Assembly (NCBI GenBank): GCA_020632575.1
Contig: JACKFH010000020.1
Coordinates: 2,849 to 66,848, forward strand
Length of the DNA stretch: 64,000 nt
Source of the DNA: Candidatus Omnitrophota bacterium
GTDB taxonomy: Bacteria > Hinthialibacterota > Hinthialibacteria > OLB16
Reading direction: 5' to 3'
Part shown: positions 18,911-37,203 of the stretch, in pieces
Numbering within the stretch: the stretch's first letter is position 1
Layout: the number at the start of each line of letters is the position of its first letter
The notes under the pieces: model-generated
Told to the model about the DNA's origin: nothing
The model's input: the letters and a program-made list of their open reading frames with translations, nothing else
Database searches by the model: none
Position numbers and translations under genes: made by a program

Positions 18911-19018
18911 TCCTAGGGATCGAGGCCACGGAATCGAAGGAAGGTATGAGATACCAAAGTGTTGGGATGTCTATATGAAGGTTCGAGCCCAGGGTGTTTC
19001 ATTGGCGACTTCCCACGT

Positions 19019-22300: not shown

Positions 22301-22741
22301 GATCGGCGGAAAACTGGGGTTGAACTCTTGTCCGATTGTCACCCCATCGGGCATCACCAGAGCGAGATACTCTCCTTCGCTTTTCAATTTAAAATTCGTA
22401 TGGAGTTCATTCCCCGGTGTCGCACGATTCTTGTCCGACGTGAAGACAACAAGATAGGAATCAGCCGCGATCGTTTCGGCGGGAAATCGCCATTTCACTA
22501 GATCCACTTGGCTATCGGTCATAAACCATCCGTCCAGATCGATGGATCCCGGGCCGGGATTATAGATCTCCACCCAATCAGGGTAGTCTCCATCCTCATC
22601 GGCTAGGGTCGCGGAGTTGGAAGCCATAATCTCATTGATCACGGGCGTCGATGCCTGAACATCGGGGTAACGGCAAGTAACCGCGAGAGCAATCGATATT
22701 GACAGAAGAGCAAGTGGGGAATAGTGCAATCGAATATTCAT
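19301..22741 (-). CDS. Secreted multidomain protein: lamin-tail domain, CotH kinase domain, beta-sandwich/CBM-like domain, second LTD, SVSNWFLY tail
   Basis: PVINEIMASN...DWVEIYN (LTD); IRRRGEST, GLFVLREKIK, GPPWDFDRSF (CotH); WKYLYDGSDQGTAWR; IIISEFLAN...EWFEIYN. Confidence 0.9.
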   Translation of the reverse strand: MNIRLHYSPLALLSISIALAVTCRYPDVQASTPVINEIMASNSATLADEDGDYPDWVEIYNPGPGSIDLDGWFMTDSQVDLVKWRFPAETIAADSYLVVFTSDKNRATPGNELHTNFKLKSEGEYLALVMPDGVTIGQEFNPSFPPIGTDLTYGLAMGLYELLETPTPGAANSAGIGPFLGVVARPDVSVKGGCYVDAVDVILTCETAGAVIRYTTDGTVPSLVNGTDYSSPIHIESLTTLLATGFRTDYEPSDTRIETYVFIDPSVASFNSNLPIIVLDTLGEDLPNLNDDPDLDPYIDCRIVIIDTDAQSGRAEITGPEHFEGWGEIRRRGESTYGQGHYALEIQDEHRQDNETPLLGMPAESDWIVSFDVIDYSLLKNEIAFKWFRDMGHYAPRQRYAEVYLNTDGGDIAPNDYKGLFVLREKIKRDNNRVDVAKLDPTDNQKPEISGGYIIKSDKLDPGDTLLDGLETGPYGIHTAGAGKPILAEPSPSDVTDQQIDWIESHINEFHAVLWQNTGSAYYPGAGPKYSDYVDVESWIDHGFVEQIGLDNDAFWGSYFAHKDRNGKIHSGPPWDFDRSFHNNAGDYDKPYDIWKLNGEIFGKWHQRLQEYLEYKMALADRWFGHRENALNTARTLAYIDEKAALMSEAMSRPQTKFYPNPFPTEVDLFKTWIANRLDWLDGEIANRFAERPPIFNPPAGPVDPGESLEISKPSGVLGTIYYTLDGSDPRLQGGAINPNAITYDPSGGPITESIVQMSDSIWKYLYDGSDQGTAWRAYDFDDSSWGSGPSQLGFGEGDETTNIGPRVIGQRTAYFRHKFTVSQVSEIIDLSIDLVHDDGAVVYINGQEVDRIFMPDGPINFETRANIQGENSNTTFSGISPTFLNEGDNIVTVEIHQIADTSSDISFDLNLEATRPNADPQIVFTQNTIVRARTKNGNNWSAQNEKLFQIQTAQPGEIIISEFLANANGDDAGKEWFEIYNTTESGIDINGWEIRDNESDSHTIDNGGPLIIPGDSHAVLAESGDMNLNGGISPDYVYGTDITLGNGGDEIILINAGVVIHSIGYENYEASGITIVTPVTLAATPGRGIGMSEGYCEGPVTTWTYQTSAFGSNLDTGTPGSVNDGVSVCPAPNPGPSSVSNWFLY

Positions 22742-22806: not shown

Positions 22807-24795
22807 CTAATCGAGATTTAGGGTTTGACAGATTTCGTTCAGTCGATCGGGCTCCTGGATATAACGGAGCCATGTAACGTAGAGACCGAGAAGCGCCACG
22901 AGGGCGATCGCGACACAAACAAGGGCGGCTGTCCAGTTTTGGATGACCATCAGCATCGGCGCGAGAAAAATCATGATCTGAAACGTGAGTGCGAATGGAA
23001 CGGCTGTCAGGTCGCGGCGGTGTTCGGCGCTTATCGCGTCGCGAATTCCCGGTTCGAGGCGTTTCTTAAGCGGACCCCAAAAACCGAAGGGCCGAGTTTT
23101 ACAGTAGAATTCTTCGAGCACTTCATCGGAGGTGGGCGGGGTGAGCAGAGCTCCCGTCACGGACCCGACAAGACCCACGGAGCCGATGGTCAATAATTGC
23201 CAGTTGGAGGTCAGGTCGGGCCAGAGGGCTCGTTGTGCGAGGGCGGCAATCAAACCCGCTGTCATCCCGATTGCAAAACCCCCGCCGTTGAAGCGCCACC
23301 AGTAAAGTCGCAGGATCAGGGGTAACATCATTCCTCCGCCAAGTCCCATAATGATCCAATCCCAGATGTCATTGATGCTTTTGATTGAGTAGGCAAAGAG
23401 AAACCCAATGCCCACTATCGCGGCGATGAAGATCCAGGTGGCGATGAGCATCTCTCTCATCCGAGCGTGGGGGCGCAGATGTTTCTGGTAGATATCGCGG
23501 ACAAACATACCGGCAGTGGTGTTGACCGTCGTGTCGAACGTCGACATGGATGCCGCCAAAAGAGCGATCAGCAAAAGGCCGCGCAGACCAGTCGGAATAT
23601 CGAAAAGGAGCACAGCGGGCATGATGCGTTCCGGATTGATGGAACCGTTGTAACTGACGAGGAGGAGTTTTTGTTTCCAATCTTCCCCAAGGATCTGAGA
23701 GAGAGAGGTGATGAGCTCTTTCGGGTAAGCCGCGGCATTGTAAATGATCCCAGAAGTCACTGCTTGCCAGTTTTCTTCAGTGACATTCTGAACATTTGCT
23801 TTGATGGTGTCCGCCGCGGAAACTATAGCGCTATGCTCTGGGAAGAGACTGCCAACAAGATAGATGCCGAGGACGGCGATCCCCATCATCATGGGCCAAC
23901 GAACCGAGATGAGGCAGGTCCAAAGGAATGAAAGTTTGGCGCATTCCGCGTCGTTCTTTGCTCCAAAATATTTCGGGTCATCGCCGGTCCCCATTCCGAA
24001 AAAGATGTTTCTCATGAGATAAATCGAAGCAAACAGAATCAACGATTCATAAGCCTCATATCCGACAGGCATGTAGGTGTGCCAATGTGGGGCGGCCTCT
24101 AACCATTGTGAGTTTCCGGTGACTCGCTCCGCAACCGCCGCCAAACTGGTCCCATCTTCGATGCGATTGACGGCCAATGCGGTGATGATGATCACTGCGA
24201 TGATGATGATGGCCGATTGAATAAAATCGGTGAGAACGACCCCATAGAAACCCGAAAACATGGTGTATATGGAAGCGACGAATACGAGCATGAAGGCGCA
24301 TTGAGGAGGCGTGAAAGGAAGGAACATGGAAAGGAAGAGACCGACGCCGACAATGAGGTATGCCAACATGCCAATGGTCATGATGATGGCGGAAATGGCT
24401 TTTACCAGTTGCGCAAAACGTCCACCGGGACCGTCACCGAAGCGGAAAATCATCCACTCGGCGCCCGTAAGGCAGCCGGAGCGACGGTGCCACTTTCCGG
24501 TCCACAGCATCATGGTCACTAGGACTAGAACAGCGCCGCCTCGGAACTCGATGAAGAGACCTCGGGGTCCGAGCATGTAAAGGAAGGAGACGATTACCAT
24601 GGTGCCGGCTACATCCAGGAAAGAAGCCATGCCGGAAACGCCTAGCACCCACCAGGGCAGGTTCCGACCGCCAACAATGTAGTCCTCAAGACTTTCCGAC
24701 GCCTTCTTCTTGAGCCAAAAACCTAATCCGAGTAGAAGAAAAAGGTAGAGGCCAATGATGAGATAATCGAAGTGATTCAGGTAATCAGTAGCCAT
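22807..24795 (-). CDS. Sodium:solute symporter family transporter
   Basis: YIVGGRNLPWWVLGVSGMAS, GFYGVVLTDFIQ, GLLLIALLAASMSTFD, LRLYWWRFNG. Confidence 0.93.
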   Translation of the reverse strand: MATDYLNHFDYLIIGLYLFLLLGLGFWLKKKASESLEDYIVGGRNLPWWVLGVSGMASFLDVAGTMVIVSFLYMLGPRGLFIEFRGGAVLVLVTMMLWTGKWHRRSGCLTGAEWMIFRFGDGPGGRFAQLVKAISAIIMTIGMLAYLIVGVGLFLSMFLPFTPPQCAFMLVFVASIYTMFSGFYGVVLTDFIQSAIIIIAVIIITALAVNRIEDGTSLAAVAERVTGNSQWLEAAPHWHTYMPVGYEAYESLILFASIYLMRNIFFGMGTGDDPKYFGAKNDAECAKLSFLWTCLISVRWPMMMGIAVLGIYLVGSLFPEHSAIVSAADTIKANVQNVTEENWQAVTSGIIYNAAAYPKELITSLSQILGEDWKQKLLLVSYNGSINPERIMPAVLLFDIPTGLRGLLLIALLAASMSTFDTTVNTTAGMFVRDIYQKHLRPHARMREMLIATWIFIAAIVGIGFLFAYSIKSINDIWDWIIMGLGGGMMLPLILRLYWWRFNGGGFAIGMTAGLIAALAQRALWPDLTSNWQLLTIGSVGLVGSVTGALLTPPTSDEVLEEFYCKTRPFGFWGPLKKRLEPGIRDAISAEHRRDLTAVPFALTFQIMIFLAPMLMVIQNWTAALVCVAIALVALLGLYVTWLRYIQEPDRLNEICQTLNLD

Positions 24796-24872: not shown

Positions 24873-26501
24873 TTAGGCCACTGGCCGCAATTTGATGCTC
24901 TTCAAATTCGGGTCTTCCACTTTCGCCATCCAGTCAACAAGCATCGACTTGAGTCGTTCTGCTTGGGTTTTGTATTCAAGTCGTTTCGGGTTGCGACCAA
25001 TGAGGTTGTCGATTTCGAGCGGATCTGATTCCAAGTCGTAGAGTCCGTCGAGCGATGGCATGTCCGCAGTGCGGCCAAACATGAGTTTCCAACGGCCATC
25101 GTAGACCATGTAGCCGGGAACCGCGCTTTGCTCCCACTCGCCAATCACATAATCGCGAGTCGCTTTTGGATCATCCACCAAGGAGCGCAAACTCTCTCCG
25201 TCAGTGGAGACAGGTGGCGCCTCCAGGTAATCAAGGATAGTGGCGTGCAAGTCAAGCAAACTGACCGGAGTATCAACGACACGTCCCGCGGGGATTTTGC
25301 CAGGCAGCCTCATGAGAAGTGGAATATGGGCCGACTCCTCATAGAACATGTTCTTCTCACGAAAGCCATGGGCTCCCAACATTTCACCGTGATCCGAGGT
25401 GAATATAACCAAGGTGTTGTCCGCCTCACCGATGGCCTCGAGTTTTTGGAGAATCTTGCCAATCCAATCATCGATCTCTCGAATCAGTCCGAAATAGTTT
25501 GACATCATATAACGAATTAATTTGGGATCGCTGTATTCGGGCGCCTGGTGATGTTTCGCTGAATCCTTGTAGGGAGAGTTCTCTTTAGAATCATTGAGGC
25601 TCTTCGATGGTCGCATCTCCTCCAATGGGTGCATCCCGTGGTAGGGCTTTGTGGGCGTCATCGGCGCATGGGGCAGATGAAAACTGCAAGTAATGGAGAA
25701 AGGTTTTCCTTTGGCTCGCTCTAGCGCATCGATCGTTTCCTTCGCTTGTTGCGCGGTGATGGAGAACTCCGCAGGGATATCCAGACGTCCATGGATATCC
25801 GGTTGAATGGGTTTGACCCTCTCACCCTTGGAATTCAAATAATATTCGGAAGGGGCCATGCCGTGACGCTTGTCGATGGGATCGGTCTTGTAAGGCCGAG
25901 CACTGTAAGTGTCGATCTGTTCACCCGGTTCGGCCTTCCTTCGGGGCACTTGATTCCGCTCTAAGAAATCCAAAAAATGCGTGCGCATCCCGGGCCCGAG
26001 AACTGTCCGCCCTTGTCCCGCAACAGTGACAGGATTCTTGTAGCATTTTGCTCGCATCTCGGGCGTGTGCCACTTCCCGAAAAACTCGGCATGGTAGCCA
26101 TGGTCGCTGAGGATTTCGTCATACGTGCGCAAATCACGGATCGGCGAGTTGGGTCCATGGGCAACGTCGTAAGCCTCTCGGTTGGAGGGGGTCGCCGTGT
26201 GCGAAAAGGCGCATCCGGTCAACAAACTTGTTCGAGCCGGACCACAGACGGCGCAATGGGTGTAGGCTTTGGTAAATCGAACGCCTTCCTTTGCAATACG
26301 ATCCATGTTTGGGGTCTGAAGCGGGGAGGAGCCGGCGCAACTCATGGCATCGAAACGCTGCTGGTCCGTGATGATGAAAAGCAGATTGGTTTTCCTGCCA
26401 GCCGGATTCGATAAAGCGGCGGTCGAAGAAAGGAGAGATGCACCCAGGCCGGCGCCGACGCTGTGTCGAATGAAGTTCCTACGATTGAGTTTGTCGGTCA
26501 T
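24873..26501 (-). CDS. Tat-exported sulfatase (S1 family)
   Basis: MTDKLNRRNFIRH twin-arginine leader; IITDQQRFD, CGPAR (CxPxR), FTSDHGEMLGAHG. The ORF-track extension overlaps lacI. Confidence 0.93.
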   Translation of the reverse strand: MTDKLNRRNFIRHSVGAGLGASLLSSTAALSNPAGRKTNLLFIITDQQRFDAMSCAGSSPLQTPNMDRIAKEGVRFTKAYTHCAVCGPARTSLLTGCAFSHTATPSNREAYDVAHGPNSPIRDLRTYDEILSDHGYHAEFFGKWHTPEMRAKCYKNPVTVAGQGRTVLGPGMRTHFLDFLERNQVPRRKAEPGEQIDTYSARPYKTDPIDKRHGMAPSEYYLNSKGERVKPIQPDIHGRLDIPAEFSITAQQAKETIDALERAKGKPFSITCSFHLPHAPMTPTKPYHGMHPLEEMRPSKSLNDSKENSPYKDSAKHHQAPEYSDPKLIRYMMSNYFGLIREIDDWIGKILQKLEAIGEADNTLVIFTSDHGEMLGAHGFREKNMFYEESAHIPLLMRLPGKIPAGRVVDTPVSLLDLHATILDYLEAPPVSTDGESLRSLVDDPKATRDYVIGEWEQSAVPGYMVYDGRWKLMFGRTADMPSLDGLYDLESDPLEIDNLIGRNPKRLEYKTQAERLKSMLVDWMAKVEDPNLKSIKLRPVA

Positions 26502-26562
26502 TCCATCCTTGCCTCTTCGATTATTACCGTGTTTTGTATGGATGCACTTTGGAACCGTGATT

Positions 26563-27588
26563 TCATTTTTGCTCGGGTCGTGGAGGTCCTGAAGATTCAC
26601 GGCGGATGAAGGTTTGTGGAATGTGATGACCGATTGGCGGCGCCTCGGGATCCTTGATCCGCTCTCTCAATGTTTCGAAAGCCAGCCGCGCCACCTCAGC
26701 ATTGTTCGGCACGCTTGTGGTCAAAGAGGGACGAATGAGTTCTGTCCAGAAATCGTCCTCAAAACTGACCATGGAAACGTCACGCGGGATTTCTATACCG
26801 ACTTCTTCAAGAGGGCGATAGAGCCTCAACGCAACACCATTGTTCATGGTTATGAGTGCAGTCGGTGCATCAGGATACTTGAACCACGAACAGACTTCCG
26901 GGATCCAATCTTCTTTCTCCCCATCCGCCCTGCGCAGTATTTTTGCAGCCTCTGGCGATTCCCGTTCCAGAACGCGTGTGACGCCTTCAAGTCGCTGCTC
27001 CGTACAACGGTTTCCTGGAAGCACTCCCACCACGCCAATCCGGCGATGTCCCAATTCAAGGAGATGTCGCGCAAGCACGCCGGATGATTCAATTTCTTCA
27101 CTTGTCACATAGTCGAAGTTATAGCCTCCGCTTTCACCCAATAGAACGAATGGCACTTTTCGGAGTTGCAGGTCGAGGAAATGACGATGTCCAGCAGAAC
27201 TATGATCGTCGGCGACCGGAAAGATGAGAAGACCATCGGCCCGATGTTCCAACATCGCTTTGATATGTTGTTTCTCGAGTTTAACATTCTCCTCGGAGTC
27301 CGCGATAAGCACCTGATAACCTTGGGCGCGACAGGAAGATTCGATACGGTGGAAAAAATCGATATAAGCCGGATTGCTGAGAGATGACACGATGTAGCCC
27401 AGCATGTGTTGCTTTTTCATCACGAGATTGCGGGCCAAAATGTTCGGACTATAACCAAACTGTTCTGCAAGTTTTTTTATGTCGGCTCGTCGCTTTTCAC
27501 TTACGCCCGGTTTGTTGTTAAGGACGCGGGAGACGGTGGCCACCGAAGTATTCGCAATTCGCGCAAGTTCTTCTATTGTTATGGACAA
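26563..27588 (-). CDS. LacI family transcriptional regulator
   Basis: TIEELARIANTSVATVSRVLNNKPGVSE HTH, hinge YSPNILARNL, periplasmic-binding-protein-like core, FIRREST-type end. Confidence 0.95.
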   Translation of the reverse strand: MSITIEELARIANTSVATVSRVLNNKPGVSEKRRADIKKLAEQFGYSPNILARNLVMKKQHMLGYIVSSLSNPAYIDFFHRIESSCRAQGYQVLIADSEENVKLEKQHIKAMLEHRADGLLIFPVADDHSSAGHRHFLDLQLRKVPFVLLGESGGYNFDYVTSEEIESSGVLARHLLELGHRRIGVVGVLPGNRCTEQRLEGVTRVLERESPEAAKILRRADGEKEDWIPEVCSWFKYPDAPTALITMNNGVALRLYRPLEEVGIEIPRDVSMVSFEDDFWTELIRPSLTTSVPNNAEVARLAFETLRERIKDPEAPPIGHHIPQTFIRRESSGPPRPEQK

Positions 27589-27607: not shown

Positions 27608-30430
27608 TCATAATGTCAGACGCAATGTTGAGATCTTGTTGGGACCCACATCAAGGGGAATTTCACCACCCTCGATTTCAATTTTACTCTCCAACTTTTC
27701 GTTTAAGTTAATCAATTCCGCTTTGGAAAACACCGCCTTCATCCGCAGTCTTCCAACGATCGATTGATTGGTAGGATTAAAAACCCTGGCGACTATGGCG
27801 GGGCCATCTTCTTCCTGTTTTAGGGCGCTTAGAACGAGTTCAGTCGGTTCAATTTCTAATAAACTCTCAACCAACCCTAAGGAACCTCCCTCGCCCCGAC
27901 CACACTGAATGGGGCGCACCGGAACGTTGAATCGTTGCGACTCCACAAAAACTCCACCTTCGTTCCAGTCTCCCGAATGAGGATATAGCGAAAAACGAAA
28001 GTCTTGCGGGCCCTGGCATTGCCCCCCCTTTTGCTTTGGATATTCCACTCCACGCGTATTTCCACTGCAAATCCAGTTCCGGACCGAACGTAGTAGTGTT
28101 ATCGCTATCGTGCGTTGAGGGTTATCCATCACCTCAAACTCGCACAGACCGTCATTGATGACGGCTAACCCATGATCACCATCCGACACATCCACGAAGG
28201 ATTGCATGGGTAATGTCTGCATGTTTTCCCAGTACCGGCCTTCGCCGAGGAATTTTTCTCGAGGCGAGATGGGACGCTCGTCGACACAGAAGTGGCCTTC
28301 GGCGCAGGAATGGGTGGCGAGTGAGATTCCAGAAGGAAAGAGCGCACGCAACCGGTGGTCTTCGATGTTATTATTGAATTGGACCCTGAGTTCAACCGAT
28401 TTCGCGCCTTTTCGCAAAGTCATGTAAGACCGAATCAGCAGATCACGGTTCGCATCGTCACGGGCCGATTTGTCCTTCAGCGCCCGCGCCGGCAGGGTCA
28501 TCGTGACTTCCGAAACGAATGTCGTTGACAAAGGACCATGCTCCTCAATCCAAGTTCGGACAGGACAGGTCTTGCTTTGGAATGTCTGGTTATTGAGGGG
28601 TTCTTGACGCACCCAATAGGTGCCCACGTCGCCACTATCCTCGTAAGAGAGCTGGTTCGGATATTCCCGGTTTGTGATCTTATTCAGAAGGTTGAACGTT
28701 CCATCAGCGTTCAGCGAAAATCTGAGAAACTCGTTTTCCATGACATCCGGCCCCTTCAGGAGGCTGCCCTCGATGGCTTCTGGCAAAGGCCATATGTCCA
28801 GTTTTTTTTCCTTCCGCGGGCACTTGCCAATACGGAGCGTTTTAAATCCTCCGGCAGGGACCTCGCCTGTTTCGAGAAAGAAAGTATGACGGGTGGAGGC
28901 GAATGCACGGGGCCGAGCATTTTTATCACATTCCATTGGCATTGCCTCTTCAATCGAAAGGCGCTGAACAGGCATCCGTCGACCATTCTCTTCAACCGTG
29001 ATAGCCGTGATTTCTTGTTCCGCTGGGGTGTCGGCAATCACCTTAATGATTTCCGACCGCGGGAAGGGCAAGGGATTGAATAGGACCAGGAAAACGTCTT
29101 CGGGGGAAGTCTCGCCAAAGTCGATCATTTTTAGGAATTCCACTGTGGCTGCATTCTCAACCACCTTGCTCAGTTCCTCTGCCTGATCGAGACGGTACAT
29201 GACATCGTTCGCGGTCTTATCCTGGGTTACACCGTTGATCGAGTCGTGCGGTTGGGACTTGAGGAGATAGTCCCAGGCCAAATCGAGGTAGGCTCTGGGA
29301 TAAGGCGCTCCTTGCGAATAAGCCAGGGCCGCAAGAGGTTCCGCCCGCTGAATCAAGCGATGCTGAACACGGCGATTTTTGTGCTTGATATAGGAGCGGG
29401 TGGCTAAGGCGTTGCAGGTTGTTTTCTCCACGGGGCCATCCCGCAGCTCGCCCTTCACCACCTTCAAATCATTGATGTTGACACCTTCTTTAAGAGCCTC
29501 CATAAACTCGGGCAATGAGCTATGCCTGAATTGACGAGATTCGTCGAGGCGATTGGCTTCTTCAATGATTTTCAAGACTGTGGGCTGTGGATAAATGAAG
29601 TCGCAACCGTCACCCATGAATCGATGGCTGGGAACAAGCGTCTCCTCTGTCGTATCCCAAGCATCCTCGAGAGCCTTCCTGAGCTTTTCCGCGTGGAATC
29701 CGTCACATGAATCGACACGAAAGTAGTCCAATTCCTGGCCTTCTTCATCTGCGGGTCGATAGGGCAGACCGCCCAGGTTCCACCGAAATGTCCAGTCATT
29801 GGGGACAATGTCCTCGCCAAAACAGACTGGAATAACACAAGTGAAGAAAAAGTTTTGACGGCCGAACATAATGCCCAACCGCGTCGTCAGTGCTTGGGTT
29901 CCATCCGGCGCTTCCCACAAAAATTCAGAATGGGGGGCCCGCTCGGAGTTTACCGTTTTACCAAAGAGAATCGTGTCGATTCCGAACCCGGCGTAAATCT
30001 GTGGCAACTGTGCCGTTTGGCCCCATCCGAAAACGGTATATCCGACGGTGAGAGTTCCCCCGTAACTATTTGCGACTCGAATTCCCTTGAGCAGATTCCG
30101 GACGAGACATTCGCCACTAACCGGGTGTTCGTCCGGAAGCGTGTACCAGGGCCCAATAAAGAGTCGACCATCCCGTACAGCCGTTTCGATCCGTGTGCGG
30201 TTTTCAGGTCGAATTTGCAGGTAATCCTCAATTGGCACCGCTTGGCCATCCATGAGGAAGGCGCGATAGGACGGATCGCGGTCGAATATTTCCAGAAGCA
30301 TATCCAGACACCCCACCAGCATTTCACGTGTCTGCCAAATTGGATACCGCCATTCCCTGTCCCAGTGAGTGTGTGTGATGACATGTGCAGTTTGGGTTGT
30401 GGTCGATTCGAGCATGCGATTTTCCATCAA
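27608..30430 (-). CDS. GH38 alpha-mannosidase
   Basis: THTHWDREW, FLMDGQ, IGPWYTLPDE, DVFGW-like segment, QPHDSING, ITLLRSV. Confidence 0.93.
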   Translation of the reverse strand: MMENRMLESTTTQTAHVITHTHWDREWRYPIWQTREMLVGCLDMLLEIFDRDPSYRAFLMDGQAVPIEDYLQIRPENRTRIETAVRDGRLFIGPWYTLPDEHPVSGECLVRNLLKGIRVANSYGGTLTVGYTVFGWGQTAQLPQIYAGFGIDTILFGKTVNSERAPHSEFLWEAPDGTQALTTRLGIMFGRQNFFFTCVIPVCFGEDIVPNDWTFRWNLGGLPYRPADEEGQELDYFRVDSCDGFHAEKLRKALEDAWDTTEETLVPSHRFMGDGCDFIYPQPTVLKIIEEANRLDESRQFRHSSLPEFMEALKEGVNINDLKVVKGELRDGPVEKTTCNALATRSYIKHKNRRVQHRLIQRAEPLAALAYSQGAPYPRAYLDLAWDYLLKSQPHDSINGVTQDKTANDVMYRLDQAEELSKVVENAATVEFLKMIDFGETSPEDVFLVLFNPLPFPRSEIIKVIADTPAEQEITAITVEENGRRMPVQRLSIEEAMPMECDKNARPRAFASTRHTFFLETGEVPAGGFKTLRIGKCPRKEKKLDIWPLPEAIEGSLLKGPDVMENEFLRFSLNADGTFNLLNKITNREYPNQLSYEDSGDVGTYWVRQEPLNNQTFQSKTCPVRTWIEEHGPLSTTFVSEVTMTLPARALKDKSARDDANRDLLIRSYMTLRKGAKSVELRVQFNNNIEDHRLRALFPSGISLATHSCAEGHFCVDERPISPREKFLGEGRYWENMQTLPMQSFVDVSDGDHGLAVINDGLCEFEVMDNPQRTIAITLLRSVRNWICSGNTRGVEYPKQKGGQCQGPQDFRFSLYPHSGDWNEGGVFVESQRFNVPVRPIQCGRGEGGSLGLVESLLEIEPTELVLSALKQEEDGPAIVARVFNPTNQSIVGRLRMKAVFSKAELINLNEKLESKIEIEGGEIPLDVGPNKISTLRLTL

Positions 30431-30484: not shown

Positions 30485-30498
30485 CGCAAAGGTTTACA
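30485..30498. promoter_or_regulatory. Putative LacI operator 1, upstream of GH38
   Basis: CGCAAAGGTTTACA; its reverse complement shares a 16-mer (GTAAACCTTTGCGTTA) with site 5. Confidence 0.7.
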
Positions 30499-30595
30499 TT
30501 CAGGATTCATAGATAGTCAATTTTCGTCTCTCTTGATCCACATTGCAAGCGTCTTATCGCTTAAAATCCATCTCTCCAAAATCCTAGATTTAAAG

Positions 30596-30609
30596 AGTAA
30601 ACGTTTGCG
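30596..30609. promoter_or_regulatory. Putative LacI operator 2
   Basis: AGTAAACGTTTGCG. Confidence 0.7.
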
Positions 30610-30780
30610 TACTTTCAGCGTTGAGGCAATTCCTGAATGGCTTGCATGAAAATCAACTACCTTATCCCCTGTCTTGGGGAGATCATCAGAATTGCTCCGG
30701 GTTGATATCGAAACCATCTCAAGTTTTGGAGATGGGAGTGACATGCCCAAGCACTAACTAGAACTTTCCCGGTAACCTCT

Positions 30781-30806
30781 CCCCCCCCTCGAATCGAGGG
30801 TGGGGG
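30781..30806. terminator. GC-rich hairpin downstream of the GH71/99-like gene
   Basis: CCCCCCCCTC-GAATC-GAGGGTGGGGG; near-identical hairpin at 33089. No clear U-tract. Confidence 0.5.
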
Positions 30807-30840
30807 AATATCAATTGAGAGTTGTCCCACGCGCCACGGG

Positions 30841-32961
30841 TCAATAAAGCTGCCAGTTGGAAACTGATAGAGGTCCGGGCGTTGGAGTGGGAGTCGGCGC
30901 TGGTGGATCATTTGGATCGATGGGTATTGTGGAGGTGAGTGGAATTTCACCTCGAAGCATTTGGGTTCCAGCACCCACAAGACGAAGATACCAGTCATTT
31001 GGCAATTCTTCATAGGAGATCCAGTTGTCGGTCACCGGATGGTTATTGGTCACCTTGAAGATGGCGGTTGATTCATCGACTTCATCGAACATCGCAACGA
31101 AGATCATATTGACGCCAACGTCCTGAACGGCATGAAGCTGGTCCCAAATGAATTGACCGTCCTGTCGGGAGATGAGGGAAGTCCCAGGGGCCAGATTCAT
31201 GAGATTGTCCCAGCTGAACCCTGGCCACACGACGGGCAAATAATCGATGTTTAATGAGGTCGTCTCGGCCACATCGGGTATCCACACATTATTCTTGATG
31301 TTATTCATTCCCGTGGTATCGGAAAATCGACCCACCATCCAGGGATTGATCATGTCCCAGCTCCGATAAATTGTGGCCCATCCCGGATCGGACTCTGAGT
31401 CCGCGGTAAGAGTCCTCCAACGAGAAGGGACTCCACCGACCAGAAAATTTCCTCCATAAGTGGGATCGTTCCGGAAGAAATCGATGACCGCGGCGGCCGT
31501 GGCGGTGGTGTGACCGCGACCGTTAAAGCCCAACCCCCAGATCTCAACAACCGGCTTGCCGTCATGGTACAGGTAGCGGGGGTCATTGGTGATATCGTAA
31601 GTGTCGACGAGGTATTTCCAATCGTCGGTGAGTTTCTGCAACATATTGCTGTCGGACATTCCACTTGTGTCATATTCGAGAGCGAACACTCGACCGTGAG
31701 CGTTTGCGGAATCGCGGACATGTTCAAGGACTCTGTTGCGAATATTGAAGAAAGCCGGGTCTTGGACTTCGCCGATGAACCGCTGGAGAAATACCCCATC
31801 GATGCCATACTCTTCCATCCATCGGAAATGGACGTCGACCACCCCCGGCCTGAAGGAACTGAAGAGTTTTCCAGGAGAGCTATCCAAGAGGGTGACTCCC
31901 GGAACGGGGAAGAGATCCTCCTCCGCGTACTCGCTTACGTCCGGCCACATATCCACGCCGAACATGCCTGGCCCTATGGAATTTGAACCTTTCCCCCAGT
32001 GCCGCCAGCCAATCGCCGGGATGTTGCCATCGCCAGGAGCCATGAACCAACCCTGGTAGCCGCAGACGATTTTCGAATCCATCGTGTTCGCATCGACCAC
32101 CGCCACGGGGGTTGGTGTGGGACCCGGAGGAGTGGATGCGGTTACTATCGTTTGGTCGGTTCCCGTATTGTAAATGACATCGACATCCCCCACGATTCCA
32201 TTGCCAGCGAGATACCCAGCTGTGGAATAATCTCTCATCACCCCAACAAAATCTCCGGGAAGAGTGACTTGACCCGTTCCATTGATGTTGAGGAGAGAAC
32301 CGGGTTGGATAGAAGTTCCACTCGCGTGAATGTTGAACAAATTCAGAGCGCCGCCGTCGTTAACATTGACTGTGGCGACACCGCCCGATGGATTGACGGC
32401 GTCAATGGTGCCGAGACCAAGGATGCCTCCGGTCTGGTTGAGAGTTCCGTTAATGTTGACCGTTGCGACGCCGGCCGCTCCGGCGGAAAACCATAGGTGA
32501 CTGCCAACGTTGATAACCGCTCCGGCATCAATCGTTAGGTCACCGGTTACCTGAGCAGCGCTACCGTTACCGCCCACCCATAGAATATCGGCAACGTTGA
32601 TTATCGCGCCCGCCGCCACAGTCATCGTCCCGGCGGAATTGTTGTGTCCGACGTAGAGACGATTAAGGACGTTAAGAGTTCCTCCGGAACTGACTTCCAG
32701 ATTACTGTCCTCATCCTGACCGATGCGGACGTTCAGGACATCCGGAGCTGTACTGCCAAGAGTCACTGTGTTTCCGGCCCAATTCAAAATGGCGGTATCG
32801 CCTGAACTTGGAAGAACTCCACCCACCCAATTCGAGGCAGTTGTCCAAGAGCCGCTGCCCATATAGCGAATATCGGCGCAATTGGCTGAGCCGGCAATGC
32901 ATGCCAAAACAACCAATTTCAGGATCCCGGAGAAAGTGAAATTTCTGGTTATCATCTTCAT
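30841..32961 (-). CDS. Secreted protein: N-terminal IRYM..GxW repeat-family domain, GH71/GH99-like catalytic domain, PT linker, SVSNWQLY tail
   Basis: CGYQGWF, DMWPDVSEY, DGVFLQRF, EYDTSG, WMVGRF, VWPGFSWDN, AMFDEVDESTAIFK. In-frame alternative start at 33015. Confidence 0.85.
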   Translation of the reverse strand: MKMITRNFTFSGILKLVVLACIAGSANCADIRYMGSGSWTTASNWVGGVLPSSGDTAILNWAGNTVTLGSTAPDVLNVRIGQDEDSNLEVSSGGTLNVLNRLYVGHNNSAGTMTVAAGAIINVADILWVGGNGSAAQVTGDLTIDAGAVINVGSHLWFSAGAAGVATVNINGTLNQTGGILGLGTIDAVNPSGGVATVNVNDGGALNLFNIHASGTSIQPGSLLNINGTGQVTLPGDFVGVMRDYSTAGYLAGNGIVGDVDVIYNTGTDQTIVTASTPPGPTPTPVAVVDANTMDSKIVCGYQGWFMAPGDGNIPAIGWRHWGKGSNSIGPGMFGVDMWPDVSEYAEEDLFPVPGVTLLDSSPGKLFSSFRPGVVDVHFRWMEEYGIDGVFLQRFIGEVQDPAFFNIRNRVLEHVRDSANAHGRVFALEYDTSGMSDSNMLQKLTDDWKYLVDTYDITNDPRYLYHDGKPVVEIWGLGFNGRGHTTATAAAVIDFFRNDPTYGGNFLVGGVPSRWRTLTADSESDPGWATIYRSWDMINPWMVGRFSDTTGMNNIKNNVWIPDVAETTSLNIDYLPVVWPGFSWDNLMNLAPGTSLISRQDGQFIWDQLHAVQDVGVNMIFVAMFDEVDESTAIFKVTNNHPVTDNWISYEELPNDWYLRLVGAGTQMLRGEIPLTSTIPIDPNDPPAPTPTPTPGPLSVSNWQLY

Positions 32962-33088
32962 GATCTCGCTTTCTTGGTTGAATTCATTGGCAAGTGACGC
33001 AACCTCCAATACCAATGAACCTCTTTTCGGATGATTGACTTGGCGCCTACGATTATCGATTCAGAAGGGATCCCAGAAGGAAATTACC

Positions 33089-33115
33089 CCCCCACCCTCG
33101 AAAAGAGGGTGGGGG
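33089..33115. terminator. GC-rich hairpin between paralogous genes
   Basis: Perfect 11-bp stem CCCCCACCCTC-GAAAA-GAGGGTGGGGG. Confidence 0.55.
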
Positions 33116-33158
33116 ATCTGTTGTGTAGATCATTTAGCGCCCAAGGATGTAGCTGATT

Positions 33159-34781
33159 CTAATATAAACCCCAATCATTCACTGCTAGTGGAGCAACAAT
33201 GACCGTGGTAAATCCTGGATTTGACGTCAAATTTGTCTGGATGTTTCCGGGAACGCCATCACCGGCAATGTAGCCGTTGCTGGCATAGTCAGCAATAACG
33301 GCTTCGAAATCACCGGGAAGGGTGACCTGCCCGCTTCCATTTATGTTTAGGATTGACCCGGGCTGGATCGAGGTTCCGGCTGCATGGATATTAAATAAGT
33401 TTAGGACTCCCCCATCCTCAACGTTAAGGGTTGCCACTCCACCGGATGGATTAACCGCATCGATTGTGCCGAGCCCGAGGATACCCCCTGTTTGATTGAG
33501 AACTCCGCTGACATTTATTGTCGCGAGCCCCGCGGCGCCTGCGGCAGCCCAAAGATGATTGCTGAAGTTGACCTCGCCTCCGGCTTCAATGGTGAGCGTT
33601 CCAGTTACCGCTGCGGGACTCCCATTACCACCAACCCAGAGGATGTCGGTGACATTCACAACCGCTCCGTTGGCAACGAGCATTGTACCGGTTGAATTGT
33701 TATGGCCAACATAAAGGCGTTGCACGACGGTTAAGGATCCACCAGCGTTCACTTCGAGTGTGCTGTCCTCATCCTGACCGATTCTAACTTGATAAACATC
33801 GGGGGCCGCGCCATTCAATGTAACGGTGTTGTTTCCCCAATTGAGAATCGCGGTTTCCAATTCACAGGGAACATTCCCAGTCTGCCAATTGGAGGCGGTC
33901 AACCAATCACCGCTGTTCATATACCGAACGTTGCCTGCCATACAAACCGGAGCAGCCTGAACGACGGTGACCGTCGTGAAACCTGGATTAGTTGTGAGAT
34001 CCGCCTGAACATTTCCAACCACACCATCGCCGGCGAAATAACCGTTGCCCGCGTAGGTCCCAATCACACTGACAAAATCGCCCGGAATGGTCACCTGGCC
34101 GCTTCCGAAGATGTTGATAATCGAACCGGGTTGAATCGAACCTCCACTTCCCGAAATGTTGTTCAGAGCCAGAACACCGCCATCATTGACGTTAACGGTG
34201 GCAACACCCCCTGATGGGTTGGATGCATCGATCGTCCCGAGACCGAGGATACCTCCGGTTTGGTTGAGATTTCCGCTGATGTTGACCGTCGCGACTCCAG
34301 CAGCTCCGGCCGACCACCATAGATGGTTTCCGACGTTGACAATTCCACCCGCCTCGATCGTCAGCGTTCCGGTTACCGCTTGGGGGCTCCCATTCCCACC
34401 AACCCAAAGAATGTCAGTGACATTCACAACCGCTCCACTGGCGACCGTCATGGTCCCCGTGGAGTTGTTGTGCCCCACATAGAGGCGGTTTAGCACATTG
34501 AGGGTCCCGCCCGCGTTGACCTGAAGGTTACTGTTTTCGTCCTGTCCAATCCGAACATCTAGGACATCGGGAGCCTGAGCCGCCAGTGTAACCGTGTTGC
34601 CCCCCCAGTTAAGAATGGCCCTATCCATGTCACCGGGGATCGCACCCCCCACCCAACCGGATGCCGTGTTCCAGTCGCCGTTCGACATATACCGAATGTC
34701 CGCCGCGTCTGTGTGACTGGCGAGACAAGCCAGCAATGTCAATGAAATACAAGTCGAAATAAGAAAATTCCTGCTCCACAT
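33159..34781 (-). CDS. Secreted protein of two tandem IRYM..GxW domains with AVNDWGLY tail
   Basis: Signal peptide; units start IRYMSNGDW and VRYMNSGDW; each contains GGILGLGTIDAxNPSGGVAT. Confidence 0.88.
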   Translation of the reverse strand: MWSRNFLISTCISLTLLACLASHTDAADIRYMSNGDWNTASGWVGGAIPGDMDRAILNWGGNTVTLAAQAPDVLDVRIGQDENSNLQVNAGGTLNVLNRLYVGHNNSTGTMTVASGAVVNVTDILWVGGNGSPQAVTGTLTIEAGGIVNVGNHLWWSAGAAGVATVNISGNLNQTGGILGLGTIDASNPSGGVATVNVNDGGVLALNNISGSGGSIQPGSIINIFGSGQVTIPGDFVSVIGTYAGNGYFAGDGVVGNVQADLTTNPGFTTVTVVQAAPVCMAGNVRYMNSGDWLTASNWQTGNVPCELETAILNWGNNTVTLNGAAPDVYQVRIGQDEDSTLEVNAGGSLTVVQRLYVGHNNSTGTMLVANGAVVNVTDILWVGGNGSPAAVTGTLTIEAGGEVNFSNHLWAAAGAAGLATINVSGVLNQTGGILGLGTIDAVNPSGGVATLNVEDGGVLNLFNIHAAGTSIQPGSILNINGSGQVTLPGDFEAVIADYASNGYIAGDGVPGNIQTNLTSNPGFTTVIVAPLAVNDWGLY

Positions 34782-34855
34782 ATCCACAACCTCACTTTCT
34801 TTTGGACCGATTTTCTCCTATTCGTTCCGGAATAAATTCGGAAATGACCACAGAG

Positions 34856-34869
34856 AGTAAACGTTTACT
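34856..34869. promoter_or_regulatory. Putative LacI operator 3 (perfect palindrome)
   Basis: AGTAAACGTTTACT, just downstream of a minus-strand TTGAAA-N16-TAGAAT promoter. Confidence 0.85.
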
Positions 34870-34964
34870 AATCAATTCTAGCAGAACGGAACTCGATTTC
34901 AAGCGTTTTTTTCCTTTTTAGCACAATTCTCTGAACAATTCCGCATTTCTCCGGACCTTATGAA

Positions 34965-34978
34965 CGTAAACCTTTTCA
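34965..34978. promoter_or_regulatory. Putative LacI operator 4 (weak/auxiliary)
   Basis: CGTAAACCTTTTCA. Confidence 0.5.
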
Positions 34979-35160
34979 TATCACGCCCTTGCGGTGGCGG
35001 ACTTAATGGATCAAGTGCCTGCTTCCTTCTCCGCCACCCGGCCAAGGATCGGCCTCCCATCCTTGAAGTGATACGGGCATGGGAAGGATTTCCTTGAGAG
35101 GAAATCGCCCACTAAACCCACTCGCCTTCTAGAAAACAAGCCAAAAGTGGCGACACGCCT

Positions 35161-36030
35161 TTACCGATACAATCCCCACTCCGATACAGAGGAAGATGGA
35201 GAAGGCGGGGGCGCGACCACGACGGTGGTCTCATCGGCGCCAAGGTCATATGATACGGCTACGTTTCCGACAACGTCGTCACCGGATATGAACCCGGCCG
35301 CCGCGTAAGATTCCATAACTCCAACAAAGTCCCCGGGGAGAGTCACGCGGCCGCTTCCGTAGATATTCAGCATGGAACCAGGCTGAATCGAAGTCCCGGC
35401 CGCATGAATATTGTTCAACGCGAGAAGGCCGCCATCATTGACATTCAGCGTTGCGGTTCCACCCGATGGGTCCACCGCGTTAATCGTCCCGAGACCCAAG
35501 ATTCCATCGACGTTTCCGGTTTGGATAATGGCTCCTCCGCTGTTGATATTAACGACGCAGGAACCGGTGGAATCCGGGCCAAACCATAGGTGACTGAAGA
35601 CATTGATGACTGCCCCATCGTTCACATCGATAGTTCCGAAGGAACCCATTCGACCCGCCCAAAGTATCCGGCCCACGTTGACGACCGCGCCGCTGTTGAC
35701 CGTTAACGTTCCAGTGACCGAACCGTTGTTGCCAGCGGTCACATCCTGAAATGCTGAGAGCACGCCTCCATCTTCGATCACTAGGTTGCCGGATTCATCC
35801 ACACCGATCTGGACACGGTTCACCAGCGGCGCCTCGTAATCCAATGTCACCGTGTTGTTGGCCCAGTTGATTCGAGCGGTATCGAATTCACCGGGAATCG
35901 CACCACCGACCCAGTTTGCAGCTTCGCTCCAAGGCCCATCGCCCATATATCGTATATTCTGGGCCTTGGCCGGACTTCCCGCGTATAGCAACGCGATCAC
36001 CACGATCCATCCAAATCTTCCTAAAATCAC
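35161..36030 (-). CDS. Secreted single IRYM..GxW-domain protein with SVSEWGLYR tail
   Basis: Signal peptide; IRYMGDGPWSEAANWVGGAIPG; GILGLGTINAVDPSGG; Pro/Ser linker. Confidence 0.88.
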   Translation of the reverse strand: MILGRFGWIVVIALLYAGSPAKAQNIRYMGDGPWSEAANWVGGAIPGEFDTARINWANNTVTLDYEAPLVNRVQIGVDESGNLVIEDGGVLSAFQDVTAGNNGSVTGTLTVNSGAVVNVGRILWAGRMGSFGTIDVNDGAVINVFSHLWFGPDSTGSCVVNINSGGAIIQTGNVDGILGLGTINAVDPSGGTATLNVNDGGLLALNNIHAAGTSIQPGSMLNIYGSGRVTLPGDFVGVMESYAAAGFISGDDVVGNVAVSYDLGADETTVVVAPPPSPSSSVSEWGLYR

Positions 36031-36282
36031 CTTAAAAACCTCTCTTTCTCTCCACCCTAATCAGGGGAATGGAATGAATTGAGCACTCATGCATATCTCG
36101 TCCACAAAGTCGCTCTTTTTCCCGAGGCCTTCCATCTAGCCTACTTGTGGAATTCGAGACCCTTTCGATCATCCGACACGGCCTGAGACCAATCCCCCAA
36201 TCAGAAACGGACTGTCGCGTGCCTTTATACGCCTCCGAATCCGTTCAAAACGCTTGAGTCTCAGTCGCCAGTCGGGCAACAA

Positions 36283-36296
36283 CGTAAACCTTTGCG
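36283..36296. promoter_or_regulatory. Putative LacI operator 5 (divergent promoter region)
   Basis: CGTAAACCTTTGCG. Confidence 0.7.
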
Positions 36297-36390
36297 TTAG
36301 AGGCTATCAATTCAAAAACCCGATGACAAGACATTTTTTAGTTTTAATTCCACTTTTTCCAGAAGTTAAAGAGAATCAGGAAGTTTATAG

Positions 36391-36404
36391 AGTAAAGGTT
36401 TACA
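36391..36404. promoter_or_regulatory. Putative LacI operator 6, upstream of the pseudopilin
   Basis: AGTAAAGGTTTACA. Confidence 0.7.
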
Positions 36405-36519
36405 CATAAGGCCGATCCTGTTAGAGTGGTTTCCAGTTGTGGGACAAATTGCGATGGAGGATGGCTGTTGGGTTCTTTTTGAGTCTGCCCCATCCAACCG
36501 CGAAACGAGGAGGCAATTC

Positions 36520-37203
36520 ATGTGGAGAAGAGAGAGGGCCTTTACGCTAATTGAGCTGCTGATCGTGATTGCGATCATCTTAATCCTGATTGCAATCGCG
36601 CTTCCTAACTTCTTGGAAGCTCAGATCCGCGCCAAGGTGGCGAATGTAAGCGCTGAATTGAAAACCATTGAGACCGCCGTCACATCCTATCGATTGGAGC
36701 GGGGATTTGATCCAGCCGATGGGACCACGCTTGGAGGGGCTGGGTATGTGGCCGGATCCGAGGGAAATCCATTTGTTTGGTCCCAGCTGACCACACCCGT
36801 CCAATACCTAACATCCATCCCGATCGACGAGTTTCTGCCGGCGGATTATGCGGTGGACGGAGGCGGCAACGGAAGCGGTGTCCGAGACCCGAACAACAAC
36901 GTTTATCGTTATTACGCAGCCGGGTGGCGGTGCCAAGCGGCGGGATTCTCCCTCATCGAACCGCGGCGTCTCGAGTGTCGGGTCAATCCGGCGATTCGGG
37001 GGCAAATTTATTCTCACCCCTTTGATCCCGATAAAGGCTTTTTGGGGTCTTGGATCGCTCTCTCCGCCGGGCCCGATCAGAGCCATGGCTATGGCGAGTG
37101 GGAATTACGTGTCACGGCCCAGAGCAATGGTTACCCGCGCACCTATTCTCCCACCAACGGCACCAGGAGCTACGGCGACATCGTCCAAACTGGCGGTGGT
37201 TGA
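36520..37203 (+). CDS. Prepilin-type N-terminal cleavage/methylation (PulG-like pseudopilin) protein
   Basis: MWRRERA|FTLIELLIVIAIILILIAIALPNFLEAQIRAKV; C-terminal SAGPD...YSPTNGTRSYGDI. Confidence 0.9.
   Translation: MWRRERAFTLIELLIVIAIILILIAIALPNFLEAQIRAKVANVSAELKTIETAVTSYRLERGFDPADGTTLGGAGYVAGSEGNPFVWSQLTTPVQYLTSIPIDEFLPADYAVDGGGNGSGVRDPNNNVYRYYAAGWRCQAAGFSLIEPRRLECRVNPAIRGQIYSHPFDPDKGFLGSWIALSAGPDQSHGYGEWELRVTAQSNGYPRTYSPTNGTRSYGDIVQTGGG

Follow-up and report, generated by a model that had tools for sequence, protein, structure and literature searches.

LacI-family repressors typically bind palindromes that have CG at the centre and are found 30-140 bp ahead of the start codon; autoregulation applies to 72% of these regulators, and 29 of the 1303 surveyed have a degenerate operator centre (PMC4052901). 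Filament-like components, on the other side of the systems considered here, have been connected with glycans. In Akkermansia muciniphila the type IV pilus-like system of MUL2 (Amuc_1099-1102) functions in mucin and fucoidan acquisition (PMC13174399), the type IV pilin CbPilA of Caldicellulosiruptor bescii is induced by xylan and binds it (bioRxiv 10.1101/614800), and pili-like fibres of the planctomycete crateriform structures bind dextran ahead of its uptake (PMC5394234). Planctomycetes also contain DUF1559 (SBP_bac_10), a large paralogous family of prepilin-leader proteins (PMC2754498). Here we analyse a 64,000-nucleotide stretch of DNA (the window; C33:2849-66848, on contig JACKFH010000020.1) from a Candidatus Omnitrophota bacterium of the Hinthialibacterota, whose assembly comprises 5.55 Mb in 119 contigs and is rated 69% complete. 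Six operator-like sites stand here in front of three transcription units, one of them a single pseudopilin gene, and we consider it probable that they are the operators of a LacI/GalR-family repressor encoded at 26563-27588 and that this repressor controls all three units, the pilin included.

A preliminary description of the window had reported six intergenic sites of the form GTAAA[CG][CG]TTT[AGT]C (GTAAASSTTTDC) and the gene order around them, and both reports hold. A pattern search gave eight strand-matches, corresponding to six sites, whereas dinucleotide shuffles of the window contained 0.08 matches on average and none of 100 shuffles reached eight. The coordinates first reported for the sites were one base lower because a flanking base had been counted in. 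All six are intergenic, although 91% of the genome is coding by a crude ORF map, and six of the 17 sites in the whole assembly fall here within 5.9 kb. The sites are inverted repeats around GTAAAC/GTTTAC, with two CG and four CC/GG centres and a mixture of GCAAAC and GTAAAC half-sites; AGTAAACGTTTACT is, at 34856-34869, a perfect 14-bp palindrome. They are close to the PurR operator, ACGCAAACGTTTGCGT, and their symmetry together with their place in front of transcription units agrees with the earlier view of them as LacI-type operators. In a genome-wide scan with a 20-bp palindromic matrix the six sites took the top six scores (23.9-25.5 bits), a rank that is partly circular, as the matrix derives from these same sites. 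They are also the only hits in the genome that are paired 60-200 bp apart with both members at 20 bits or more. The three regulatory regions contain no extra weaker site; between window positions 19000 and 40000 the next best score is 6.6 bits.

The pairing had been put at about 108-111 bp, and we measured centre-to-centre spacings of 111, 109 and 108 bp for the three pairs. Every pair is located just upstream of the gene that opens a transcription unit, and lacI is the second gene of the unit headed by a GH38 alpha-mannosidase (Table 1). In front of the gene for a 542-aa exported protein the proximal operator begins at about the transcription start predicted for the TTGAAA-16-TAGAAT element, and the proximal GH38 operator is found just downstream of the weaker TTGCAA-17-GAAAAT element. 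The site at 30597..30608 is probably an auxiliary operator, as no other gene start is close by.

The regulator is full-length; it matches PF00356 (51.1 bits) and PF13377 (100.9 bits) and aligns to RbsR, PurR and CcpA across residues 3-332, which cover the helix-turn-helix (HTH) and the core. Loci of homologs were scanned with a five-sequence alignment. The closest homologs (45-47% identical) come from three species of a sister genus in the same family, which also includes 'Candidatus Hinthialibacteria bacterium OLB16', and more distant ones (40-43%) from metagenome-assembled genomes (MAGs) of Hydrogenedentota, Lentisphaerae and Victivallales. The recognition helix NTSVATVSR is kept in all of them. 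In all three sister-genus species lacI is divergent from a pseudopilin gene and the intergenic region contains TGGAAACGTTTCCA, TTGGAAACGTTCTC and TGGAAACCTTTCCA in an identical arrangement, with 112 bp from the first to the second and a further 38 bp to the third. In a Victivallales MAG CGTAAACGTTTACG and CGTAAAGGTTTGCG lie upstream of an operon whose last gene is the lacI homolog. A CG-centred site paired with a CC-centred one is seen repeatedly in the homolog group and also in one paralogous system. Hence, with matching palindromes and the same recognition helix in the homologs, the motif travels with this group. The shared helix and the near-identical palindromes make the adjacent LacI the best candidate binder, as the preliminary description had supposed, and it likely binds the window sites.

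The preliminary description had also placed the pseudopilin in the regulon. The pilin promoter bears one of the three site pairs, and the start of the gene at ATG 36520 is confirmed by a strong Shine-Dalgarno sequence, AGGAGG, 7 nt before. The protein matches the prepilin leader/N-methylation models PF07963 (41.7 bits) and TIGR02532 (31.2 bits). The pilin next to lacI in the sister genus is 50-54% identical to it across the whole globular domain, a domain found in only about 20 database clusters, and no such palindrome was found at the other pilin paralogs of the same subfamily in the sister-genus genomes. That the pilin is a real member of the regulon is thus well supported by computation. 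The description of it as PulG-like did not stand, as it scores 46.6 bits against the GspG equivalog model TIGR01710 (cut-off 88.85), has no gsp operon around it and is an orphan gene beside glycan genes; the most fitting name for it is prepilin-type protein of the type IV filament family. An AlphaFold model built on a 19-sequence alignment shows a helix at residues 10-61 and is poor overall (pLDDT 50.5).

The association of this pilin with the neighbouring genes extends to another phylum. The beta-solenoid domain of the 289-aa exported protein encoded beside the pilin has at least 242 homologs; those with a source name are from Pirellulales planctomycetes, and about a quarter of the matches listed carry a precomputed PEP-CTERM match. 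We inspected eight Pirellulales-type loci located via homologs of this protein. GH99-like genes are present in seven of the eight and sulfatases likewise in seven, while some also have GH38 or GH92, a sodium:solute symporter (SSF) up to 68% identical to that of the window, or a protein of the same CotH architecture (L129). In six of the eight a pseudopilin with N_methyl and DUF1559 domains lies directly downstream of a beta-solenoid gene. Such pilins number about 80 in a 6.5-Mb Bythopirellula genome, so chance adjacency would be expected at only a few percent per locus. The regulators of these loci are of another kind, either a sugar regulator of the periplasmic-binding-protein (PBP) type (GntR-HTH/PBP) or an ECF sigma factor, and the GTAAAC-type motif is absent from the Pirellulales-type syntenic loci. 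Judged by gene content, the putative regulon gene set, pilin included, is a conserved module with a varying regulator.

We propose the following model for the control of the locus. When the sugar effector is absent, each of the three promoters would have repressor dimers bound at two operators, the proximal one and, about 110 bp upstream of it, an auxiliary one. The former would cover the -35 element or the transcription start, or sit just downstream, and the two bound dimers would probably stabilise one another over the AT-rich spacer. This would shut off (i) the GH38 alpha-mannosidase-lacI-sulfatase-SSS symporter-CotH unit, (ii) the unit for the 542-aa and 724-aa beta-solenoid proteins, the latter with a GH99-like domain of endo-mannanase type, and (iii) the single pseudopilin. 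A single operator on contig C85 would add a locus with a second GH38, a PfkB kinase and a 2-hydroxyacid dehydrogenase. A product released from an alpha-mannoside or from a glycan of sulfated-mannan type would free the repressor, which would also regulate its own synthesis.

Several observations weigh against this model. Promoter-like matches are no commoner than in shuffles (three found against 5.6 expected), and the CC/GG centre of four of the six sites is unusual for the LacI family. The C-terminal tetramerisation segment (heptad helix) of E. coli LacI is absent from the window protein, which ends at residue 341 and whose alignment to E. coli LacI stops at residue 329 of 360. A genome of the same genus has no ortholog of this LacI, so that the locus is either accessory or was missed in that 84%-complete MAG. 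Related sites of the TGCAAACGTTTGCA type occur at eight or more other loci and could be bound by the same or another protein. Furthermore, only six of the approximately 80 pilin paralogs in the genome have any LacI-like palindrome upstream, against a background of 4.5%, and close paralogs of the window pilin (55-61% identical) lie in non-glycan contexts, beside SpoIIE/STAS or two-component genes. The link between pilin and LacI is hence specific to the locus and not general. Two broader generalisations, that pilins as a rule carry LacI sites and that this pilin subfamily always resides in glycan loci, are ruled out, the former by this frequency, the latter by those paralogs and by the palindrome-free ones.

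The two operators of a pair might also act independently, with neither loop nor cooperativity. The proximal site would then block initiation, and the distal one would serve as a roadblock against transcripts running in from the same-strand gene upstream or raise the local repressor concentration. This is possible, though we consider it rather unlikely. The missing LacI-type tetramerisation segment speaks for it, as do the fact that two of the three promoters have a further minus-strand gene upstream of the distal site and the variable spacing found elsewhere (60 bp at L025 and 81 bp at L024 among the homologous systems, 21 and 119 bp at paralogous loci). The pilin promoter, however, has no upstream co-directional gene and nevertheless shows the 108-bp spacing. 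Agreement of three spacings within 3 bp has a probability of about 4e-4 when two sites are placed at random in each of three intergenic regions, and the spacers are unrelated to one another (z = -0.4 to -1.8 against shuffles). As they cannot be aligned, the common spacing is not a relic of a duplicated promoter block, and an origin of the three promoter modules as duplicated blocks is ruled out. The spacers are also AT-rich (31-38% GC against 52% for intergenic DNA), and the sister genus keeps 112 bp between its first two operators in three species. The two operators around a promoter thus keep to a narrow range of spacings, 108-111 bp in the window and 112 bp in the three sister-genus species. 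The distance between the gal operators OE and OI is about 113 bp, and with an in-vivo helical repeat of about 11 bp for lac loops, 108-112 bp amounts to some ten turns. Of the looping suggested in the preliminary description, then, the conserved spacing of about 110 bp keeps the idea plausible, and the absent C-terminal segment tells against it; in view of that absence, loop formation would need GalR-like dimer-dimer contacts.

It is improbable that the pair between 36031 and 36519 controls the divergent 289-aa tailed gene, with the pilin an incidental neighbour. The intergenic region is common to both genes, and the 289-aa protein is of the same family as the clearly regulated 542-aa and 724-aa genes. 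Against this, the distances of the sites are 122 and 230 nt to the ATG of the pilin and 254-373 nt to the 289-aa start, and the proximal one overlaps a promoter-like element oriented towards the pilin. In the three sister-genus species the CC-centred TGGAAACCTTTCCA stands about 44 nt before the ATG of the homologous pilin, and at two other LacI loci the operons themselves include pilins. Within 250 nt of the 289-aa gene start there is no site, and a matrix scan gave no weak extra sites close to the 289-aa or 724-aa gene starts. The earlier statement that the tailed paralogs stand under the sites thus applies to the 542-aa/724-aa unit, while the membership of the 289-aa gene in the regulon is uncertain.

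Another regulator might bind the sites, with the neighbouring lacI a bystander. It could be one of the four other LacI paralogs of the genome, or a global factor resembling CcpA or PurR whose gene the incomplete assembly does not contain. Such a protein would fit with the mixed half-sites and with the TGCAAACGTTTGCA-type sites, whose occurrence at eight or more unrelated loci points to a wider regulon in the genome. The motif, however, accompanies homologs of the window LacI across two phyla, and the top-scoring sites all cluster around the window lacI. Of the five LacI loci in the genome, the four others encode paralogs with recognition helices unlike NTSVATVSR, and three of these have palindromes of their own nearby. 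We regard this possibility, too, as improbable. It is, lastly, very improbable that the sites arose by chance or are left over from a repeated element and have no regulatory role, given 0.08 matches expected against eight observed, intergenic and paired sites, non-homologous spacers and an arrangement kept in relatives.

The other LacI loci bear on the pilin in their own right. On contig C27 (L099) lacI is divergent from an operon encoding a CBM32-like protein (ending NWELY), a DHDPS-family lyase, a pilin, a GH78-like protein and two further pilins; its sites AGAAAACATTTTCT and ATAAAACGTTTTCT, of the AGAAAAC/GTTTTCT type with CG and CA centres, are 119 bp apart (C27:38722/38841). On contig C1 (L100) the order is tailed protein (ending GWELYQ), pilin, lacI, with three palindromes upstream (C1:276252/276273/276398) of the AGTAAC/GTTACT type (AAGTAACGTTACTT and CAGTAACCTTACTG). 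The preliminary description had raised the question whether other pilins sit in LacI loci with tailed proteins; two of the four other LacI loci do show this arrangement, each with genes of CAZyme type as well, whereas most of the roughly 80 pilins have no LacI-type site. The regulon is also not confined to the six sites. A seventh, single site (GAATGTAAACGTTTGCAATA, 23.6 bits, C85:5147-5166, L121) lies between a divergent 2-hydroxyacid dehydrogenase gene and an operon that encodes a second GH38 together with a PfkB kinase and a URO-D-like protein. At a distance of 3 kb there is a gene for a beta-helix protein with the ending DDWDLYE. Single TGCAAACGTTTGCA-like palindromes of 16-20 bits are found at C29:62565, C45:6467, C71:2158, C2:79888, C65:166749, C49:39961, C107:5847 and C50:29577, mostly in divergent intergenic regions; one directly precedes the pseudopilin gene C50:29627-30271.

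Most likely the window pilin is a locus-specific subunit that would enter a type IV filament or a machine of the genome resembling the type II secretion system (T2SS). The genome encodes five ATPases of PilB/GspE size, five shorter homologs of PilT size, one prepilin peptidase and three secretins, so that the pilin could be processed and assembled. There it might capture the glycan, or display or export the co-induced tail-sorted proteins, a role suggested by the conserved gene neighbourhood. A 16-bit LacI-like site (AAATGCAAACGTTTAGGAAG, C87:187762-187781) about 250 nt upstream of the sole prepilin peptidase gene (C87:187193-187513) may be due to chance. In the OLB16 genome the best pilin homolog (57% identical; G002:C98:18793-19374, L105) contains one in-frame TGA, which may reflect a pseudogene, a sequencing error or recoding.

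The tail in question is shared by about 26 exported proteins of unrelated families, which end in [SA]V-x-[DNE]-W-x-[LIVM]-[YF] plus zero or one residue; as a control, the same expression shifted 30 residues upstream gave five matches. CotH, subtilase, FG-GAP, beta-helix, CBM32-like and GH99-like proteins carry it, and the tailed proteins of the window are encoded at 1008-2915, 19301-22741, 30841-33015, 33159-34787 and 35161-36030. Proteins of the sister genus end in SV-x-DW-x-x-Y. Tailed proteins lie within 1 kb of a pilin in six of the 26 cases, against 4.3% of all long genes, and are thus enriched there but not always adjacent. The genome also has an exosortase and at least 17 PEP-CTERM proteins. 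As the consensus of the planctomycete beta-solenoid homologs has a PEP-CTERM anchor at the position of the W-x-L-Y tail, the latter seems to be an alternative tag for sorting or anchoring. A further pair of pilin and tailed protein is found at C98:8014-12662 (L101), where an ECF sigma factor, a putative anti-sigma factor, a pseudopilin and an 850-aa FG-GAP protein ending RWNLYD are encoded in one direction, under a regulator class other than LacI.

The features of the locus are collected in Table 1. The genes for the CotH-LTD protein, SSS symporter, sulfatase, LacI and GH38 form a compact minus-strand block, in which GH38 likely starts at ATG 30427, is cytoplasmic and has no signal peptide. 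The GH99-like part of the 724-aa protein scores 22.2 bits against PF16317, under the cut-off of 33, and matches PDB entry 4acz with E = 0.01 across 90 residues; homologs 38% identical to it occur in the lacI loci of Lentisphaerae and Victivallales, one of which (L074) reaches 33.2 bits and so the GH99 cut-off. GH38, the GH99-like domain, the sulfatase and the SSS symporter together point to an alpha-mannoside or a glycan of sulfated-mannan type as substrate. A match to SusD (PF07980) was found nowhere in the genome, with Bacteroides thetaiotaomicron positive as a control, in line with the earlier characterisation of the locus as a glycan-utilisation set resembling a polysaccharide utilization locus (PUL) but lacking SusCD. 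The repeated domain of about 240 aa in the three tailed paralogs is confidently modelled as a beta-solenoid (pLDDT 91.4 in the model of the 289-aa protein). With this model a Foldseek search of the PDB found no match better than E = 0.09; the highest-ranking matches, all weak, were to the autotransporter passengers Ag43, EspP and Hbp. The hairpins listed in Table 1 are probably terminators or attenuators copied together with the paralogous genes; their pattern, CCCCCACCCTCGAnnnGAGGGTGGGGG, is within the genome essentially restricted to this locus. Just downstream of the pilin, a 600-aa ORF (37957-39759, minus strand) has no Pfam or NCBIfam match.

Table 1. Operator-like sites, promoter-like elements, genes and hairpins of the locus, in window positions. 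Distances are from the site centre to the ATG of the gene named.
Feature	Coordinates	Strand	Sequence or domains	Remarks
Operator proximal to GH38 operon	30486..30497		GCAAAGGTTTAC (on +)	25.5 bits; 64 nt upstream of ATG 30427
Operator distal, GH38	30597..30608		GTAAACGTTTGC	25.2 bits; 111 bp from proximal; 175 nt upstream of ATG
Promoter-like element	30520..30548	-	TTGCAA-17-GAAAAT	Between the GH38 operators; found by eye, weak consensus match
Operator proximal to 542-aa gene	34857..34868		AGTAAACGTTTACT	Perfect palindrome; 81 nt upstream of ATG
Operator distal, 542-aa gene	34966..34977		GTAAACCTTTTC	109 bp from proximal; 190 nt upstream of ATG
Promoter-like element	34875..34902	-	TTGAAA-16-TAGAAT, TG extension	10/12 positions; consensus match only
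Operator distal to pilin	36284..36295		GTAAACCTTTGC	Found by pattern and matrix; 230 nt upstream of ATG
Operator proximal to pilin	36392..36403		GTAAAGGTTTAC	Over the -35 of promoter-like TTTACA-17-TAGAGT (36399-36427); 122 nt upstream of ATG
CotH protein	19301..22741	-	LTD and CHB_HEX_C domains	Ends SNWFLY; last gene of same-strand block
Sodium:solute symporter (SSS/SSF)	22807..24795	-	Domain match	68% identical to SSF of syntenic locus L126
S1-type sulfatase	24873..26600	-	Domain match
LacI/GalR-family regulator	26563..27588	-	HTH and periplasmic-binding-protein fold	Recognition helix NTSVATVSR
GH38 alpha-mannosidase	27608..30430	-	GH38 N, middle, C and C2 domains	First operon gene
724-aa exported protein	30841..33015	-	Beta-solenoid and GH99-like catalytic domain	Ends SNWQLY
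GC-rich hairpin	33087..33115			Between 542-aa and 724-aa genes; near copy at 30781-30806 after 724-aa gene
542-aa exported protein	33159..34787	-	Two beta-solenoid domains	Ends NDWGLY
289-aa exported protein	35161..36030	-	One beta-solenoid domain	Ends SEWGLYR; divergent from pilin
Pseudopilin	36520..37203	+	Prepilin leader MWRRERA/FTLIELL	Mechanical ORF from 36439

Sulfated algal glycans have major degraders in the PVC superphylum and allied candidate phyla. These bacteria lack SusCD, and their prepilin-type paralogs number tens to hundreds: about 80 here, about 80 with DUF1559 in Bythopirellula and, as reported, 74 in R. baltica. The locus offers a testable link between the two, with a defined repressor, its operators, one pilin, partner proteins and a likely substrate of alpha-mannan type, and syntenic loci exist in cultivated planctomycetes, a phylum with genetic tools. 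If the pilin were needed for growth on, or uptake of, its cognate glycan, the expansion of paralogs would represent substrate-specific modules. A wider reading, which we offer as speculative and somewhat doubtful, is that every glycan-utilisation locus of the Hinthialibacterota and of Pirellulales-type planctomycetes brings its own pseudopilin. Together with a tag-sorted beta-solenoid partner (W-x-L-Y here, PEP-CTERM in planctomycetes), this would make a substrate-specific fibre on shared machines of the type IV filament or T2SS-like kind, a pilus-based functional counterpart of SusCD. Such a fibre may capture the glycan or pull it in, or else present the enzymes of the locus, and its expression may be set per locus by LacI, GntR-PBP or ECF-sigma sensors. 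If true, this would account for the presence of pseudopilin and DUF1559 paralogs by the dozen in Hinthialibacterota and planctomycetes.

Our literature search brought up no paper in which prepilin-type or DUF1559 paralogs are connected with CAZyme loci or with a sugar repressor. The string 'pili' occurs nowhere in the text of the survey of 1303 LacI-family regulators (PMC4052901), two recent surveys of CAZyme clusters do not mention pilins, and the description of the Hinthialibacterota uses 'pilin' once and mentions neither pseudopilins nor LacI regulators. Among described filament systems, MUL2 of A. muciniphila likewise ties a type IV filament-like component to glycan acquisition without uptake of the SusCD type; likened to our locus by description, it is one conserved machine locus (PilM, archaeal-type pilin) outside CAZyme operons, whereas here a prepilin-type paralog lies in a substrate-specific, LacI-controlled locus. 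CbPilA belongs to a Gram-positive thermophile with one complete type IV pilus locus and an undefined regulator, in contrast to the orphan pilin with identifiable operators described here. The DUF1559 family of planctomycetes shows the same large prepilin-leader paralogy in glycan degraders, and its members adjoin the beta-solenoid homologs in the syntenic loci, but the window pilin has no DUF1559 match by Pfam or NCBIfam profiles.

Like the SusC/SusD PULs of Bacteroidota, the locus combines enzymes, a transporter, surface proteins and a regulator, co-localised and co-regulated for one glycan. Unlike them it has no SusD, would take up its substrate by an SSS symporter and presents W-x-L-Y-tailed beta-solenoid proteins and a pseudopilin as its surface components. 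The closest parallel is with LacI/GalR systems that use auxiliary operators, such as E. coli GalR (OE/OI), LacI (O1/O3) and PurR. The regulator is of the same HTH and periplasmic-binding-protein type and is encoded inside its own catabolic locus, its sites are likewise palindromes of 14-16 bp with an AAAC/GTTT core, here 60-230 nt upstream of the starts, and each promoter has two operators some ten helical turns apart. The CG-centred site is likely the high-affinity one and its CC-centred partner the weaker. The window differs from these systems in the CC/GG centres of four of its six sites and in the lack of a LacI-type tetramerisation tail, and from surveyed LacI regulons in including a pilin-like gene and tail-sorted surface proteins. 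LacI regulons as such are well known (PMC4052901); what is new is a local LacI regulon that includes an unusual, conserved module of a pilin and surface proteins.

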